Shown one piece after another: positions 8,968 to 59,974 of a stretch of 64,000 nucleotides of DNA. Each line of letters opens with the position of its first letter. Within the stretch, counting starts at the first letter, position 1. The stretch comes from Patescibacteria group bacterium (GTDB lineage: Bacteria > Patescibacteriota > Minisyncoccia > Phycocordibacterales > JAKFXT01). The position numbers and the translations under genes are program-made. The notes beneath the pieces were generated by a model, which was given only the letters and a program-made list of their open reading frames with translations, was not told the origin of the DNA and ran no database searches. The stretch is taken from positions 22,936 through 86,935 of the forward strand of contig JBBTUX010000010.1 of NCBI GenBank assembly GCA_038063555.1, in the 5' to 3' direction.

Positions 8968-9046
8968 ATTAAATTGGTTAATATTAACACATGAGGATAT
9001 GATTAATGTTAGTAGGTCATTCAACTCAACTTCGGGGAGAGTGTCC

Positions 9047-9439
9047 ATGAACATCGACATGACAGTCCGCATGAGGAAATCGCACGACGGAACACCTCTT
9101 CCTGTGTGGTTGACCGAGGGAGATGAAGTCTTCGTCAGCACGTGCAGGTTACTCAGAGGTGTTTGGGACGATGGCTACATTAAGGATCTAGAAGAATGGG
9201 GATTAAGTGTTTTACCCCATCAAAAAATCGCAATGGGCCCTCTTAACGAACACAGGTTCGCTCTCGCGATTCTGCCTATGACAGAGATCATCGAAGAGGC
9301 GAACCGTAAAAATCCGAAGAGGAATCCGGCAAGATTTTGGGTATACATAGTAAGAAACTATCTGACAGGATCGTACATCTATCGAGTGCTTGATCCCCAA
9401 GAGAGGAGAGCCTGTCTGATAAAAAGCATGCTAAACTGA
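9047..9439 (+). CDS. Hypothetical protein encoded in a GC-rich (~48%) island
   Basis: 131-aa ORF preceded by a GGGGAGAG SD with 5-nt spacing. Composition is distinct from the flanks. Followed by a strong terminator. Confidence 0.45.
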   Translation: MNIDMTVRMRKSHDGTPLPVWLTEGDEVFVSTCRLLRGVWDDGYIKDLEEWGLSVLPHQKIAMGPLNEHRFALAILPMTEIIEEANRKNPKRNPARFWVYIVRNYLTGSYIYRVLDPQERRACLIKSMLN

Positions 9440-9446
9440 TCGTCAG

Positions 9447-9486
9447 TGATCGGCGCGACTTGGGACGCGCCGATTTATTTTTTATT
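9447..9486. terminator. Bidirectional rho-independent terminator
   Basis: gATCGGCGCGacttgggaCGCGCCGATttattttttatt. Serves the 9047..9439 ORF (+) and the desaturase gene (-). Confidence 0.7.
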
Positions 9487-10285: not shown

Positions 10286-11056
10286 TTATTTAGCTATATT
10301 CCAAAGCATGTCGAAAAACTTTTTATAATTGTCCGCCACTATTTTTGATTTTATAACATAAACCAATGGGGGAGAGGCGAAGCTGTATATAGTTACGGTA
10401 TCAAAACGGACAACTGTATTCACAATAGTTTTCGGTAAGGTATTAAGTATCTTGTATTCAAAGTGTGGGTTCGCTTCTTTAGCAAGCTTAAGCCAATCTT
10501 CTTCTTCAGGACAACCAACGTATCTTGAGTGTAATTTCTGATCTTTGGCCAACCCGCTAAAATCTTTATATTGATCACCAAAAAACTTAATAAAGTGGTC
10601 GCTGGCACCTCCAATAATATATTGCTCGCTGTTTGATTTTAGTGTATTAACAACTTTTTCTTCAAAATCAAAAACTTGCCTTTCCCCCATATAAATTTCA
10701 AAATCTTGTTCCGCGCCAACATTTGAAATTAGTTTCAATTCTTTTTCTATTTCTTCTGCTTCATCAAGTTTTTTTCGCGCTAGTTTTGTTACCTGCAAAG
10801 GAGGGAGGGCTCTATACTTAAATCGTAATTTATCTCTAATTGACTCAATGAGTTTAAATTTTTCTAATTTCTTTAAAGAATTATAAACATACTGTCTGTG
10901 AAGACCTGTTGCTATAGATAATTTAGAACCGCTCATACTGTTACCTCTCTCCAAAAGATAAAGGTAGATCGTAGAGTCATTTGTGGTTAGTCCTACACTC
11001 TCAAGCATTACAGAAAGCTTTTTATTAATTAAATTATCTTCTTTTTTATTTGTCAT
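10286..11056 (-). CDS. TrmB-family transcriptional regulator (winged HTH)
   Basis: N-terminal ...TIYLYLLERGNSMSGSKLSIATGLHRQYVYNSLKKLEKFKLIE matches the TrmB-type HTH. Confidence 0.55.
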   Translation of the reverse strand: MTNKKEDNLINKKLSVMLESVGLTTNDSTIYLYLLERGNSMSGSKLSIATGLHRQYVYNSLKKLEKFKLIESIRDKLRFKYRALPPLQVTKLARKKLDEAEEIEKELKLISNVGAEQDFEIYMGERQVFDFEEKVVNTLKSNSEQYIIGGASDHFIKFFGDQYKDFSGLAKDQKLHSRYVGCPEEEDWLKLAKEANPHFEYKILNTLPKTIVNTVVRFDTVTIYSFASPPLVYVIKSKIVADNYKKFFDMLWNIAK

Positions 11057-11234: not shown

Positions 11235-11639
11235 ATGTTGTTCTGGAAAGAAGTTCTAAGAAAATTTCCTAACAAAAAAGTCATATGCTTGCCCAATAAC
11301 AGGTGGAAGAGAGTAAGGAATGAAATCTTCCTTTCTTTGCTTCCTCTCTCTCCGAATGGGGAAATCACCCATACCACAGAAAAAGAGAGAGTCATCCGGG
11401 AAGGTTGGCTACCTTTCATCGAGCAAGTCGACAATCTTGACATTGTCGCTTTTGTTCCTGAAATAAAAACCTTCCTTCGCACAGGAAAGATTCCACCGAG
11501 GATGTATGGTTCCAACTACGGGCTAAGACTTTCAATCTCCTACTATGATCGGTGTTTGGAGAAATTGGATTTAAAAAGAAAAAAAATCTCCGAAAATATG
11601 AAGAGACAAGTAAGGAGAGATAGATGGAAGTCTCGGTAG
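11235..11639 (+). CDS. Hypothetical basic protein, cassette-like gene flanked by an 11-bp direct repeat
   Basis: ORF (alternate GTG start at 11205) bounded by GAGCATAAACG at 11208-11218 and 11639-11649. GC somewhat elevated. Terminator follows. Confidence 0.4.
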   Translation: MLFWKEVLRKFPNKKVICLPNNRWKRVRNEIFLSLLPLSPNGEITHTTEKERVIREGWLPFIEQVDNLDIVAFVPEIKTFLRTGKIPPRMYGSNYGLRLSISYYDRCLEKLDLKRKKISENMKRQVRRDRWKSR

Positions 11640-11720: not shown

Positions 11721-12644
11721 TTATTTCTTTTTACCGTGGAACCTTTTATGTATTTCTTTCAAATGCGCATCCGTAACATGAGTATATATTTGGGTGGTGC
11801 CAATGTTAGCGTGGCCTAAAAGGGCTTGCACCGAGCGTAAATCAGCCCCATTACTCAAAAGGTCTGTCGCAAAAGCGTGACGAATGGTATGGGGCGTAAC
11901 AACAGAAGAGATGCCGGCACGGGCAACATAGGATTTTAAATGCCTTTGCACATCTCGAGGAATAATGCGATGAAGTTTGTTTTCCCTGCCATCAACAAAA
12001 AGAGCTTCCTCCATATCTTTTCTTTCTTTTAAATATTGCCACGCCGCTTCTTTGGCAGAAGGGGAGAGAAAAACCACTCGGACTTTTTCTCCTTTACCCC
12101 GCACAGAAATTTCATCGCGAGAAAGATCAATATCATTGTTAAGCGCACAGAGCTCGGAAACACGAAGACCGGTTGAAAATAAAAGTTCAAGTATAGCCCC
12201 ATCTCGCAAAAACATTCTTTTTTTGTGAGGATTTTTTTCTTTCTCATATGCTTCCTTAGGAGCTTTGAGCAGACGCAGAAGCTCCGCGGGAGTTACCAAA
12301 TCAAGGTGGCGTTCAGGAAGTTTGGGCAATTCTATTTTTTCCGGAGAAACGGATTCTATGTCGCGCTTCCTTAAAAATTTTAGAAAAGCGCGAATGGCAA
12401 TAATGTAATAATTTTGCGTGCGACGCTTCATTGAATCTTTCCCCGTGCCGCTTTGCCTATTTAACCAAAGACGAAAATCGCGAATATTTTGCTCGCTAAT
12501 ATCACTGGCCTTTTTTATTTCCATTTGACCAAAATAGCGGGTCAAATATCTGTCGTAATTTTCAATTGTCTTAACGGCACGCCCCCTTTCTATTTCAATA
12601 TATTCCAAAAATTGTCTTTTTAGATTTTCAATTTCTGTTGCCAT
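11721..12644 (-). CDS. xerC: Tyrosine recombinase XerC/XerD family
   Basis: N-terminal core-binding domain. Catalytic region ...HTIRHAFATDLL...LGHANIGTTQIYTHV (R..HxxR..Y). Confidence 0.8.
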   Translation of the reverse strand: MATEIENLKRQFLEYIEIERGRAVKTIENYDRYLTRYFGQMEIKKASDISEQNIRDFRLWLNRQSGTGKDSMKRRTQNYYIIAIRAFLKFLRKRDIESVSPEKIELPKLPERHLDLVTPAELLRLLKAPKEAYEKEKNPHKKRMFLRDGAILELLFSTGLRVSELCALNNDIDLSRDEISVRGKGEKVRVVFLSPSAKEAAWQYLKERKDMEEALFVDGRENKLHRIIPRDVQRHLKSYVARAGISSVVTPHTIRHAFATDLLSNGADLRSVQALLGHANIGTTQIYTHVTDAHLKEIHKRFHGKKK

Positions 12645-13524: not shown

Positions 13525-13791
13525 ATGCTTACCAAGCGAAAGAAGGAAAAAGCTGTTAAATTCGTGCAAAAGCACGATAAGGACACGGGGTCGCCCGAAG
13601 TCCAGATTTCCATATTAAGTAAGAGAATTGATGAATTGGCGGGTCATTTGAAGAAAAACCCTAAAGACAAGCATTCCCGCCGAGGACTTTTGCAAATGGT
13701 GGCGGATAGACGCACCCATATGGCATATTTAAAGAAGAAGAGCGAAAAACGCTACGCTTCTGTCGTCAAAAAACTAGAACTTAGTAAGTAA
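13525..13791 (+). CDS. rpsO: 30S ribosomal protein S15
   Basis: 89 aa: ...DTGSPEVQISILSKRIDELAGHLKKNPKDKHSRRGLLQMVADRRTHMAYLKKK. Alternative upstream ATG at 13507. Confidence 0.85.
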   Translation: MLTKRKKEKAVKFVQKHDKDTGSPEVQISILSKRIDELAGHLKKNPKDKHSRRGLLQMVADRRTHMAYLKKKSEKRYASVVKKLELSK

Positions 13792-53106: not shown

Positions 53107-53189
53107 TTATTCGTAATGATATCACAAAGCTCTAGGAAAACGGCTCAAAAAACGGCTAAGACAAGCCGTTTTCGGGGGAAGAGAATATC

Positions 53190-53218
53190 TTGACTTTTGT
53201 ATTTTTATGGTGTATAAT
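53190..53218 (+). promoter_or_regulatory. Consensus sigma70-type promoter (TTGACT-17-TATAAT)
   Basis: cTTGACTtttgtatttttatggtgTATAATtg, upstream of the GC-rich lipoprotein-like gene. Confidence 0.55.
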
Positions 53219-53295
53219 TGTGGGTAGGTAAGTTTGGGATTAAAACCCCTTCGAAATTCAACAATTCTGCCACAATGGCAGGGAAAGGAATTACC

Positions 53296-53763
53296 ATGAT
53301 TCGCATCCTTCTGGCCACTTTCGTGGTGGCGCTGCTACAAGGCTGTGCTGGAATGGGAGGGCTTAACGCCCCTGACTCCGGCACATACGGCTATTTCCAG
53401 AGTGACTTCTCAATAAGTGAGCCGAGTTGCCAAGCCGTTCGTGTCCAAAGTGGTTTTTGGGCCGCAACGGAATGCCAACGCGCTTACAACCAACGTGTGA
53501 TGTCCAACCGCCAAGCCTTAGCCGCGGATCAGCGCTCACAGGCATATCAGTGGGCAGAACTTTGCGCTGAACACGCGTGGGTTGGTCCCAACGGGTTTGT
53601 AATTTACCCGTCGCAATATTGTGTGCCACGCAACCCGTATGAGAGCCAGCTTCGCGATTATGCCCAAAATCTTGGGCGTGATCGTGCTTTCCAAAAAGCG
53701 CAGATGGACAGAGATCTTCGGGATCAGGCGGCGCGACGCACGGGGGACGCTTATGTCCGCTGA
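53296..53763 (+). CDS. Putative secreted/lipoprotein encoded in a GC-rich (~58%) island
   Basis: MIRILLATFVVALLQGCAG is a signal peptide with a lipobox-like LLQGC. AAAGGA sits 8 nt before the ATG. Composition is strongly atypical for this locus. Alternative start at 53275. Confidence 0.5.
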   Translation: MIRILLATFVVALLQGCAGMGGLNAPDSGTYGYFQSDFSISEPSCQAVRVQSGFWAATECQRAYNQRVMSNRQALAADQRSQAYQWAELCAEHAWVGPNGFVIYPSQYCVPRNPYESQLRDYAQNLGRDRAFQKAQMDRDLRDQAARRTGDAYVR

Positions 53764-53812
53764 AAGCGGACAGAAGCGGGGTCGGATGGGAGAAATTCCT
53801 CCGGCCTTTTTG
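53764..53812 (+). terminator. Hairpin(s) + T-tract terminator ending the GC-rich island
   Basis: GTCCGCTgaaaGCGGAC ... GGAGaaattCCTCCGGCCtttttgtttttc. Confidence 0.55.
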
Positions 53813-53841
53813 TTTTTCTTAATTAGAGGTAATATCGCAAA

Positions 53842-54279
53842 ATGGTACTAAAAATAGAAAGTTTAAAAGAGTTAAAAAATTTCTCTAAGAAATTTCTTAA
53901 AGAATTAAATCCAGTAAAAACTGGCGCCACTATTTTAGCGCTTCAGGGAAATTTAGGAAGCGGTAAAACTGCTTTTGTAAAAGTTTTGGGAAAGAATCTT
54001 GGTATTAAAAAAACCATAATTAGTCCCACTTTCATTATTATGAAACTGTACGATATATCGTACAAAAATTTTAAAAAACTGATTCATGTTGATGCGTACA
54101 GATTGGAAAAAGAAAAAGAGTTGGAAGTTTTGGGTTGGCAGGAAATTTTGAAAAACCCAGAGAATTTAATTGCTATTGAATGGCCAGAAAATGTTTCAAA
54201 AGTTATTCCCCAAAGTGCCAAAAAACTTAAATTTAAATTTGTTGATGAAAAGACACGAAGTGTAAAGTCCGAGATATGA
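53842..54279 (+). CDS. tsaE: tRNA threonylcarbamoyladenosine biosynthesis ATPase TsaE
   Basis: Walker A ILALQGNLGSGKTAFVK...HVDAYRL. The last codons lie within a GAGTTAYGA repeat arm. Confidence 0.7.
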   Translation: MVLKIESLKELKNFSKKFLKELNPVKTGATILALQGNLGSGKTAFVKVLGKNLGIKKTIISPTFIIMKLYDISYKNFKKLIHVDAYRLEKEKELEVLGWQEILKNPENLIAIEWPENVSKVIPQSAKKLKFKFVDEKTRSVKSEI

Positions 54280-56852: not shown

Positions 56853-57392
56853 GTGATAATAGAAAAAATATTTATGAAACAAAATGATTTTGCTGAAAGT
56901 ATGCTTAAAGGGCGTATGGCGGAAACTCTTTTTGAGGGATTAATGAAAGATTCAGGAAATAAAGTATATAGATTCGGCTATGAAGCAATTACTCAAAATC
57001 TTGTTCAGCTCGGAGAAAGTTTTGATAAATATGGGGAAGTAAGTGAAAAAATAAGAGCTATTCCGGACTTTATAGTCATTGATAAAAAGGGAAAACCACA
57101 ATTTGTTGAGGTAAAATTTAGATGGGAACCAAACGAACCACTTTACGATCAAAGTGTCGGTATTCTTAATCGCGTTGCGAAGTATTGGAACGCCCCCGTT
57201 GTTTTTATGAATTGTTGGGAACAACCATTTTTTCGAGTCAGTGTTCCTCCATATTTTGATAAAAATAAAAGATTAATATATAAACCAATAACATCAATTT
57301 CTGAATGGAGTATTGAGCAGAAGATTTACAACAAATATGAAAATTTGATCCACAAGTACTTAACCCCAACACTAGTTCCTCCCAAAAAATAA
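56853..57392 (+). CDS. Hypothetical protein, possible PD-(D/E)xK-type nuclease fold
   Basis: ...IPDFIVIDKKGKPQFVEVKFR... fits a D...E-x-K pattern. Start may be 56874. Confidence 0.3.
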   Translation: MIIEKIFMKQNDFAESMLKGRMAETLFEGLMKDSGNKVYRFGYEAITQNLVQLGESFDKYGEVSEKIRAIPDFIVIDKKGKPQFVEVKFRWEPNEPLYDQSVGILNRVAKYWNAPVVFMNCWEQPFFRVSVPPYFDKNKRLIYKPITSISEWSIEQKIYNKYENLIHKYLTPTLVPPKK

Positions 57393-58085: not shown

Positions 58086-58094
58086 AAAACAATA

Positions 58095-58125
58095 CCCCGC
58101 GCGAAGCGCGGGGCTTTGAAGCATG
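58095..58125. terminator. Bidirectional GC-hairpin terminator
   Basis: aataCCCCGCGCGaagCGCGGGGctttgaag. Confidence 0.6.
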
Positions 58126-58158
58126 GTGCAGTTAAGAGATGTCCCCTCCAGGTCTAGC

Positions 58159-58494
58159 TTAGGTTTTCGTGAGTGCCCCCTGAAGCTTTTGGATTGCTCC
58201 AGCCCGTATGGGCTCGGGCACATCCTCGAGAAGGCGAGCTAGTTCGGAGACGTGTTTGTCTACCTCACTGTTCAACCTGGACGCTTCTCTCGTTATCCTT
58301 TCGGTGATGTGCCCAGGAAGATCCTCAGCATTTTCCCATAGATCGATCGATGCGATAGTTCCGTTGCCGAACCCAGAGGCTCCCCGACCGAGCACCACTT
58401 TTTCGGCGAGATGCATGTTCGAGACATAACCCACAATTGATCTGTCGCGACCGTCTACACCGCAGTCCCAGCACTGAAAAATCGGTTTCATCAA
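58159..58494 (-). CDS. Hypothetical protein encoded in a GC-rich (~52%) island
   Basis: 111-aa ORF (MMKPIFQCWDCG...) with composition distinct from the flanks. Confidence 0.4.
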   Translation of the reverse strand: MMKPIFQCWDCGVDGRDRSIVGYVSNMHLAEKVVLGRGASGFGNGTIASIDLWENAEDLPGHITERITREASRLNSEVDKHVSELARLLEDVPEPIRAGAIQKLQGALTKT

Positions 58495-58571
58495 AGACTC
58501 CTACGTTTACGAGAAAAGACTCGCTCTGAAAGCTAGGTTACTCTTGCAAAAGAGAAAGTCAATTATTAATA

Positions 58572-59729: not shown

Positions 59730-59902
59730 ATGTTTATAGAGTTATACTGCCTTTTAATAATAACATGTCGTCACAAGTTTTTTCTTGCTAGAAAAACTCG
59801 CGACCCGACAAGACAATATAGTGCCTAAGCACTTTTTGTCCGCGACCGCCACGCTCCGGCTCGGACAAGTTTTAAACTTTGTCCCACAAACTTTAAAACT
59901 TG

Positions 59903-59974
59903 TCCGCCCGGGAGGAATCGAACCTCCGACCAATTGCTTAAAAGGCAACTGCTCTACCCCTGAGCTACGGGCGG
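59903..59974 (-). tRNA. tRNA-Lys (anticodon TTT), no encoded CCA
   Basis: Reverse complement CCGCCCG-TA-GCTC-AGGGGTA-GAGC-A-GTTGC-CTTTTAA-GCAAT-TGGTC-GGAGG-TTCGATT-CCTCC-CGGGCGG-A. Followed on the minus strand by a palindromic hairpin at 59848-59902. Confidence 0.85.

Follow-up and report, generated by a model that had tools for sequence, protein, structure and literature searches.

Three GC-rich single-gene islands in a groundwater Patescibacteria genome are probably resident occupants of fixed expression slots

Introduction

The Vlp/Vsp loci of Mycoplasma and the Vsp/Vlp expression sites of Borrelia are variable surface-lipoprotein loci, and genomic islets are short, compositionally deviant single-gene segments lying among housekeeping genes. 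In Staphylococcus aureus, the tandem lpl lipoproteins are built of conserved 5' and 3' units around a variable mature region (PMC2568036). In this study, we have explored a stretch of 64,000 nucleotides (the window) from a groundwater Patescibacteria metagenome-assembled genome (MAG) of the Parcubacteria/Paceibacteria type, in which three short GC-rich blocks (islands 1, 2 and 3) each hold one open reading frame (ORF1, ORF2 and ORF3). An initial annotation had taken these blocks for single genes that carry their own expression signals and were acquired horizontally from higher-GC donors. Our comparison with related genomes argues for a different reading, to which we give a probability of roughly 0.6: the three blocks are real single protein-coding genes, resident in fixed expression slots, and not self-contained recent imports. 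Our most interesting result reaches further than the initial finding: a lipoprotein gene that is fixed in position, evolves fast, occurs across the clade and has a GC content independent of its host (slot A, between pilB and tsaE, held here by ORF2), together with a second slot in which an invariant leader precedes interchangeable, unrelated GC-rich ORFs (slot B, held here by ORF3).

We rate the phenomenon as a variant of the hypervariable surface-protein locus and of the replacement hotspot. Slot A resembles lpl (PMC2568036) in that the promoter, the segment from the start codon to the end of the signal peptide and the 3' flank are conserved, the mature region is divergent and the product is a predicted surface lipoprotein. 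Unlike variable lipoprotein loci, slot A is single-copy, and searches of the window and of the proteins of the MAG turned up neither paralogues nor silent cassettes. There is no switching within the population, and the variation lies between species and is not programmed. Programmed antigenic variation was therefore ruled out (no silent copies, a stable population), even though the 5' region is conserved as it would be in such a system. We know of no counterpart to the host-independent GC content among variable surface-lipoprotein loci.

The likeness to genomic islets extends to the varying content of slot B. Unlike islets, our loci have no mobility signatures, no donor, no empty site and resident orthologous signals, and relatives carry orthologues or homologues of two of the three genes at the corresponding position. 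The GC content of the islands also exceeds that of the host, whereas acquired or ORFan genes are reportedly most often AT-richer than the genome that carries them. Integron cassettes offer another parallel, since the slot-B unit consists of little more than the ORF behind a resident conserved leader and the ORFs are small ORFans. The resemblance ends there: slot B is a single position and not an array, its terminator follows the gene directly, and we rejected a cassette because there are no attC sites or attC-like imperfect inverted repeats (only short GC hairpins with T runs), no IntI, and the neighbours are housekeeping genes. Diversity-generating retroelements are common in the Candidate Phyla Radiation and have a short variable region. 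One was considered and set aside here, as the whole coding sequence (CDS) differs between relatives, there is no reverse transcriptase among the annotated neighbours and no template repeat was found. In the literature searched, we found no description of the pattern of these GC-rich slots.

Results

The window has 38.0% GC overall (400-bp windows: mean 0.380, standard deviation (sd) 0.044) and not the ~35% first given as background, yet the contrast with the islands is real. The blocks measure 47.0% (9047-9486), 52.6% (53190-53812; 55.8% for the CDS at 53296-53763) and 54.5% GC (58095-58494), where ~48, ~58 and ~52% had been put forward. No GC peaks of the window are stronger than those of islands 2 and 3, and island 1 stands out less, at about +2 sd. 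Exactly one of the six frames is open in each island. ORF1 encodes 130 amino acids (aa) in place of the 131 first counted, and the 111 aa first given for ORF3 hold from an upstream TTG, with 110 from the ATG. Sliding-window GC and codon usage bear out the claim of atypical composition, in that the GC content at third codon positions (GC3) of ORF1 (0.531), ORF2 (0.537) and ORF3 (0.564) takes the top three places in a comparison with 63 called ORFs of the window, which average 0.333 (sd 0.066). The share of C in NNY codons is 0.51-0.60 in the islands versus 0.33 in the background and the share of G in NNR codons 0.35-0.41 versus 0.20; the four-fold codon boxes are likewise GC-shifted, and the leucine CTN:TTR ratio is 28:6 versus 887:802. 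Codon positions 1 and 2 are shifted too, with about half of the GC excess due to amino-acid composition and about half to synonymous choice, and the proteins are poor in K, I and F and rich in R, A, Q, G and W. Overall, a GC content of 47-56% against 38% is an atypical composition for the host genome. The gene for ribosomal protein S15 (13525-13791) has the fourth highest GC3 of the window (0.50) and a codon-class shift like that of the islands.

For comparison, 80 related loci were fetched with PolA as the query. The nearest species is ND4_Bin_14 (locus L009, PolA 81%), with which the window shares an 11-kb syntenic region at 75-88% nucleotide identity. Setting aside the indel of one gene (p179, described below) and short gapped intergenic and gene-end stretches, identity falls to 0.32-0.52 at 53250-53850 and 58200-58500, that is, at the two GC-rich islands. 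Around the collapse at island 2, L009 keeps the pilB start, the intergenic hairpin, both promoter hexamers, part of the Shine-Dalgarno (SD) sequence, the first four codons of ORF2 (ATGATTCGCA, MIRI) and the terminator tail CCGG.CTTTTT.TTTTTC, although the coding body is unalignable. At each slot, promoter or leader, SD, start codon and terminator are orthologous to those of relatives, and the coding body alone is unusual. As relatives with different coding bodies keep the promoter, SD, start and terminator of ORF2 and ORF3, these signals are resident and were not imported, which contradicts the initial view that islands 2 and 3 brought expression signals of their own.

Slot A is found well beyond this pair of species. 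A lipobox ORF of 85-290 aa fills it in 49 of the 69 loci with pilB..tsaE adjacency, and these 49 ORFs have in common a signal peptide and a ..G-C lipobox. By all-against-all phmmer they form about a dozen small families and many singletons, and the families mostly follow PolA clades. The presence of the lipoprotein slot across the clade indicates that island 2 is old. The slot-A genes have a GC content of 0.528 +/- 0.059 and a GC3 of 0.59, versus 0.41 and 0.38 in pilB, tsaE and polA. Slot GC is higher than flank GC in 43 of 46 loci (Wilcoxon p 9e-12) but independent of it (slope 0.18, p 0.17), so that the composition stays at ~53% GC in host genomes spanning 28% to 59% GC; in genomes with a flank GC3 of 0.76, the slot GC3 is in fact the lower of the two (0.63-0.66). 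In three further lineage pairs, flanks that are 80-97% identical enclose a slot at ~40-48% identity, with a GC jump from ~0.35 to 0.55-0.6. More generally, 103 of 1481 crude gene calls in 76 related loci (L009-L088) are GC3 outliers (robust z>3; ~7%; median length 144 aa). The slot-A gene accounts for 46 of them, and none of the 10 tested outliers outside the pilB-tsaE slot has a Pfam domain. Small GC-rich ORFans would seem to be common to the clade at large.

Slot-A genes diverge quickly. With nonsynonymous divergence (dN) of 0.35-0.82 in the slot, synonymous divergence (dS) of ~0.8-1.5 in the flanks and a flank dN/dS of 0.02-0.15 (NG86), the slot-A gene evolves at roughly 0.3-0.7 of the neutral rate (slot dN over flank dS). 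Identities of 25-59% between pairs whose PolA is 94-96% identical had pointed to allele replacement as the sole source of this variability. The flank dS overturned that candidate, as at 0.8-1.5 fast vertical divergence is sufficient in most pairs. Some exchange does occur nonetheless. Between loci L066 (6026-8525) and L080 (PolA 94%), the left flank is ~80% and the right flank 95-99% identical and the lipoproteins belong to different families, which points to a putative recombination breakpoint at the slot; in L051/L053, PilB at 74% and PolA at 94% identity likewise face each other across it.

ORF2 (long form NCBI MEK7567673.1, locus tag AAB513_02000) has a predicted signal peptide, MIRILLATFVVALLQG, with Cys17. 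Its N-terminus, MIR-ILLATFVVALL-QGC17, agrees with the sequence definition of a lipoprotein (a positive N-terminal region, a hydrophobic region and a lipobox with an invariant Cys), so the initial suggestion of an exported lipoprotein stands as a prediction and that of a role in interaction as a reasonable guess. Homologues occur solely in the same slot of L009 (phmmer E 2e-7) and of L011 and L012 (~1e-14; best 7e-15). The four members have in common MIRIL..(Q/G)GC, a ..LC.E...VGP.G. motif and a C-terminal VR, and the lipobox Cys is present in 4/4. We found no match to ORF2 in Pfam, NCBIfam, PADLOC, PHROGs or PDB sequence searches, no second copy in the 64-kb window (tblastn, blastn) and no paralogue among 5.8e9 proteins, those of this MAG included. 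Its population is stable, as 14 contigs of several samples differ by at most a few single-nucleotide polymorphisms (SNPs). ORF2 is probably a lipoprotein exposed at the cell surface, where contact with host or phage would place it under diversifying or relaxed selection.

Some variation is seen at the 3' end of ORF2. All three other assemblies that cover the gene share a SNP at 53753 (Y153S), and in one of the assemblies (L003) 6 of 10 SNPs over 15.8 kb fall within the 66 bp of 53753-53818, that is, the ORF2 3' end and terminator. One of these abolishes the ORF2 stop (TGA->GGA) and yields a 183-aa variant (P0009). The segment is either a micro-diversity hotspot or the noise of a low-coverage assembly.

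At slot B, the coding bodies are not even recognizably related. The slot ORFs measure 110 aa in the window, 92 and 115 aa in L009 and L010, and 103 aa in L011, all GC-rich (GC3 0.55-0.67). BLASTP of ORF3 against those of L009 and L010 gives no alignment at E<=100, and against that of L011 a 10-residue match only (E 0.30). The L010 ORF is weakly DUF4440/SnoaL-like. ORF3 has no signal peptide, no match in Pfam, NCBIfam, PADLOC, PHROGs or PDB sequence searches, and self-matches alone among 5.8 billion proteins. The end of holA, the terminator hairpin and the leader are conserved in L009 and L010. The 48-nt core of the leader has one mismatch in L009 and three in L010, despite synonymous sites of the flanking genes that are near saturation between the window and L009. 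The slot is filled in every genome compared and never empty, and the unit replaced runs from the SD/start to the stop codon. Judged from these alignments, genes are replaced at slot B while the signals stay resident. ORF3 itself is probably an accessory gene open to replacement, and a horizontal origin of island 3 could concern the coding body only.

The leader itself would be a promoter plus 5' untranslated region, and could hold both promoter and operator. A structured RNA in it was considered and ruled out, with no Rfam match and no unusual fold (z-score 0.4). The terminator of ORF3 may also end holA from the other side.

ORF1 behaves differently from the other two, in that it has a conserved orthologue at the same site. 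Its SD lies in a divergent intergenic region of 76 nt, on the other side of which an exonuclease III-like gene starts at 8970 on the minus strand. The stretch AGGTCATTCAACTCAACTTCGGGGAGAGTGTCC ahead of the start codon is identical in two relatives (L001 and L095), and both keep the terminator hairpin CGGCGCGACTTGGGACGCGCCG, called by the scanner as a terminator-like hairpin with T tail at 9448-9475(+). The window and L001 are ~90% identical at the nucleotide level through SD, CDS and terminator. The L001 orthologue is 85% identical in aa sequence, with differences distributed 13/6/40 over the three codon positions, and thus ORF1 is coding and under purifying selection. The orthologue is divergently paired with the exonuclease III-like gene in four contigs (L001, L002, L093 and L095; a fifth, L094, is too short to show the neighbour), and its right-hand neighbour is the desaturase gene, or XerC in L093. 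A k-mer-indexed search gave three relatives (85, 79 and 48% identity). An exhaustive hidden Markov model profile search of 1.84 billion cluster representatives, which covered ORF1 alone of the three proteins, gave three representatives in all, at least two of them from groundwater metagenome assemblies of the same site.

The substitution flux in ORF1 is balanced. Substitutions polarised over the three closest sequences number 36 GC->AT and 33 AT->GC. At third positions they stand at 25 and 19, where ~2.3:1 would be expected of a gene decaying to GC3 0.33. In the GC-richer relative L093, the gene is no outlier (GC 0.476 versus 0.473 for the rest of the contig). On the evidence of these comparisons, ORF1 is an old, vertically inherited, clade-specific gene with a composition of about 44-48% GC that appears close to compositional equilibrium at about 46% GC, without sign of decay toward the host composition. 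We found no match to it in Pfam, NCBIfam, PADLOC, PHROGs or PDB sequence searches, nor any fold match, and its structure model is poor (predicted local distance difference test (pLDDT) score 54.7; the other protein model, 53). ORF1 may act as an accessory factor to the nuclease encoded next to it. A resemblance of residues 14-30 (DGTPLPVWLTEGDEVFV) to the C-terminus of UmuD-like S24 peptidases on GC-rich metagenome contigs (82% over 17 aa) was set aside as chance; these matches (L089-L092, 10001-10051) came from the metagenome scan with the ORF1 profile and were produced by the search pattern itself.

None of the searches for a source or a vehicle was positive. Protein searches with ORF1, ORF2 and ORF3 returned self or clade matches only and no donor lineage, and scans of viral contigs found no relatives of the three. 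No tRNA or integrase adjoins any island, and the junctions have no flanking repeats beyond the terminator hairpins. A XerC-like gene at 11721-12644 is conserved in relatives and not adjacent to any island. At gathering score, Rfam recognizes five tRNAs only in the window; at E<=1, islands 2 and 3 and their surroundings give no credible match.

Independent assemblies in ENA (Hainich H41) and Logan, which cover several samples, include 14 contigs with ORF3 in the same context. The longer of these contigs carry ORF2 too, identity to the window is 99.94-100%, and syntenic slots are present also in MAGs of other species.

The features of the three loci are collected in Table 1. The promoter and the terminators were located where the initial annotation had them, but what it saw as similarity between two terminators amounts to a UUGUUUUC tail common to both, and we attach no weight to it. 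The annotation of the neighbours agrees with its description of single genes between housekeeping genes: an exonuclease III-like (Exo_endo_phos) gene and a fatty-acid desaturase gene for island 1, PilB (T2SSE) and TsaE/PolA for island 2, and a HolA-like gene and a DUF8173 gene for island 3. The ORF2 terminator stem has a mismatch; it is visible in the sequence and was left uncalled by the scanner. In the hairpin between pilB and the ORF2 promoter, the L009 stem has one compensatory change from C-G to T-A, and this element could serve as an attenuator in the pilB leader or as an insulator acting in both directions.

Table 1. Features of the three islands (positions in the window)
Feature	Position	Strand	Remarks
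Shine-Dalgarno of ORF1, GGGGAGAG	9034..9041	+	read in sequence
ORF1, 130 aa, cytoplasmic	9047..9439	+	GC 46.9%, GC3 0.53; clade-restricted ORFan family
Intrinsic terminator of ORF1	9448..9485	+	10-bp stem, 7 GC pairs, then T-rich tail
Hairpin ACGGCT..AGCCGT + TTTTC with tandem AAAACGGCT repeats, between pilB and ORF2 promoter	53137..53175	.	conserved in L009
Promoter of ORF2, sigma-70-type TTGACT-17-TATAAT	53190..53218	+	11/12 positions match
Shine-Dalgarno of ORF2, GGGAAAGGA	53281..53289	+	partly conserved in L009
ORF2, 155-aa predicted lipoprotein, begins MIRILLATFVVALLQGC	53296..53763	+	GC 55.8%, GC3 0.54
Hairpin across ORF2 stop codon	53748-53778	+	read in sequence
ORF2 terminator, GGTCGGATGGGAGAAATTCCTCCGGCC + TTTTTGTTTTTC	53780-53818	+	hairpin 53780-53806, T tail 53807-53818
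Intrinsic terminator of ORF3	58094..58114	-	9-bp stem, 8 GC pairs; conserved in L009 and L010
ORF3, 110 aa from ATG (111 from upstream TTG), ORFan	58159..58491	-	GC 53.6%, GC3 0.56
Near-invariant 75-nt leader of ORF3, between DUF8173 stop and ORF3 start	58495..58571	-	SD GGAG 58498-58501
Inferred ORF3 promoter, TTGACT-16-TAACCT	58562-58557, 58540-58535	-	inferred

Discussion

Compositional outliers are routinely read as recent horizontal acquisitions, and here the relatives contradict that reading. Atypical composition is a stable property of certain slots, kept over divergences at which synonymous sites are saturated. GC-richness would be actively maintained and would not be the residue of a foreign donor. 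The likeliest cause may be a locus-specific GC-favouring force, either GC-biased repair of recombination heteroduplex at loci that are often exchanged or selection at the nucleotide level, which would act together with allele exchange between related lineages by way of their conserved flanks. GC-biased gene conversion has been proposed for recombining bacterial genes (Lassalle et al., 2015; PMC4450053). As in that proposal, GC and GC3 are raised in our loci independently of selection for optimal codons, and the loci carry signs of recombination. There are also differences. An increase of 0.2 in GC3 in single genes is much above the genome-wide trend reportedly found in that study; simple GC-biased conversion does not predict that, in GC-rich hosts, the GC3 of the slot lies under that of the genome; and no weak-to-strong fixation bias emerges from the 36:33 flux in ORF1 (n=69).

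Several points weigh against our reading. A host-independent composition is also expected from a horizontally shared gene pool, and the data fit either such a pool, passed across lineages with a composition decoupled from the host, or a GC-favouring force. Slot B is outright gene replacement, so that the coding bodies, that of ORF3 above all, may be of horizontal origin, and its architecture is common to three relatives only. The ORF1 substitution test has n=69 changes and excludes amelioration marginally. Gene calling in the related loci was crude and took the longest ORF that starts with ATG. The lipoprotein status of ORF2 is a prediction from sequence, with an atypical Q at lipobox position -2. 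Finally, both structure models are poor.

A more detailed scenario can be drawn for the pilB-adjacent slot, and we offer it as a doubtful but conceivable elaboration. The lipoprotein would turn over in a near-neutral manner at an autonomous ~53% GC; its alleles would form an interspecies pool exchanged by transformation and homologous recombination via the promoter and terminator flanks; biased conversion would make them GC-rich; and the product would be a determinant of recognition by host or phage. Slots of the ORF3 type would follow the same principle with interchangeable cytoplasmic accessory genes. Should the product of slot A act as a surface determinant in these uncultivated episymbionts, its gene can readily be located by position in any Paceibacteria genome, and the pilB-tsaE lipoprotein would be an obvious candidate in questions of host range or phage resistance. 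Genes that ignore the mutational GC equilibrium of their host would in addition provide a clean natural test case of GC-biased conversion versus nucleotide-level selection in bacteria.

Classical horizontal acquisition, in which each island is a recent import from a higher-GC donor that has yet to ameliorate, is in our view unlikely. The islands are atypical at all three codon positions, as if from a genome of 50-55% GC; islands 2 and 3 are the sole strongly divergent substituted (non-indel) segments against L009; slot B carries unrelated genes in four related genomes; the GC content of slot A ignores that of the host, as a shared pool would have it; and ORF2 scores better against L011/L012 (PolA 65%) than against L009 (PolA 81%). 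Against this stand the resident orthologous promoter, SD, start and terminator, the ORF1 orthologues at the same site in all holders with their balanced substitution flux, and the true ORF2 homologues in the same slot, in families that mostly follow PolA clades. No homologue outside the clade was found among 5.8e9 or 1.84e9 proteins or in viral contigs, the junctions have no tRNA, integrase or repeat signature, and the absence of a Pfam domain extends to 10/10 of the other GC3-outlier genes tested in relatives. Given age, resident signals, absence of donors and balanced flux, islands 1 and 2 are unlikely to be simply foreign DNA that has not ameliorated. What survives of the initial proposal includes the atypical composition and, at the island-3 slot, the replacement of genes; recent self-contained cassettes at islands 1 and 2 and a higher-GC donor find no support, the protein searches having ended within the clade. 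In the presence/absence check that it had called for, islands 2 and 3 differ from the nearest relative, and ORF1 is conserved wherever relatives carry it.

It is improbable that expression-linked codon bias, with translational selection raising the GC3 of very highly expressed small genes, explains the composition. The strong SDs, the near-consensus promoter and the strong terminators would suit such genes, as would the S15 gene with its similar codon-class shift, but S20 (GC3 0.31) and HU (0.34) are both ordinary, codon positions 1 and 2 and the G-ending NNR codons are shifted too, and neither the hypervariability nor the slot GC3 below genome GC3 in GC-rich relatives would be explained.

Structured RNAs classically show up as GC-rich intergenic blocks in AT-rich genomes, GC-rich DNA yields longer chance ORFs, and several slot regions of relatives do show overlapping ORFs. 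That the islands are structured RNAs or other non-coding elements with incidental ORFs is nevertheless very improbable. No Rfam family appears at gathering score or at permissive thresholds, and conservation within the loci is lowest in the island bodies. A single frame of six is open between a conserved SD/start and terminator, the ORF1 substitutions concentrate at third positions (13/6/40), and signal peptide and lipobox are kept across 49 slot-A loci. An assembly chimera or contaminant read-through, the alternative that the initial annotation had left standing and for which nothing speaks except the compositional jump itself, is excluded by the identical junctions and content of the 14 contigs from independent ENA and Logan assemblies.

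Other observations in the window

Two further genes vary between relatives, with a composition opposite to that of the islands. A TrmB-like helix-turn-helix regulator gene (10286-11056, GC 0.33) lies between the desaturase and XerC genes and has no tblastn match in L001, where these two adjoin. The gene p179 (56853-57392, GC 0.34, 172-179 aa, no Pfam domain), between polA and holA, is missing from the nearest relative L009 and present in L010 (78% aa identity), a presence/absence polymorphism. Since both are AT-rich accessory genes, accessory status alone does not make a gene GC-rich. Between the TrmB-like gene and XerC there is also a 134-aa ORF (11235-11639) with no Pfam domain and a mildly raised GC3 (0.455), which may be a fourth, weaker example of the islands or may be spurious.

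Finally, in sister-strain contigs L005 and L006 (1-8583; Logan SRR32696678/9), homology to the window stops at 59908, inside tRNA-Lys (59902-59974). Past this point they carry Eco57I/N6-methylase, PLD-SNF2 helicase, HTH_17 and Terminase_2 genes in place of DoxX/SpoU, probably an integrative element at tRNA-Lys in one strain.

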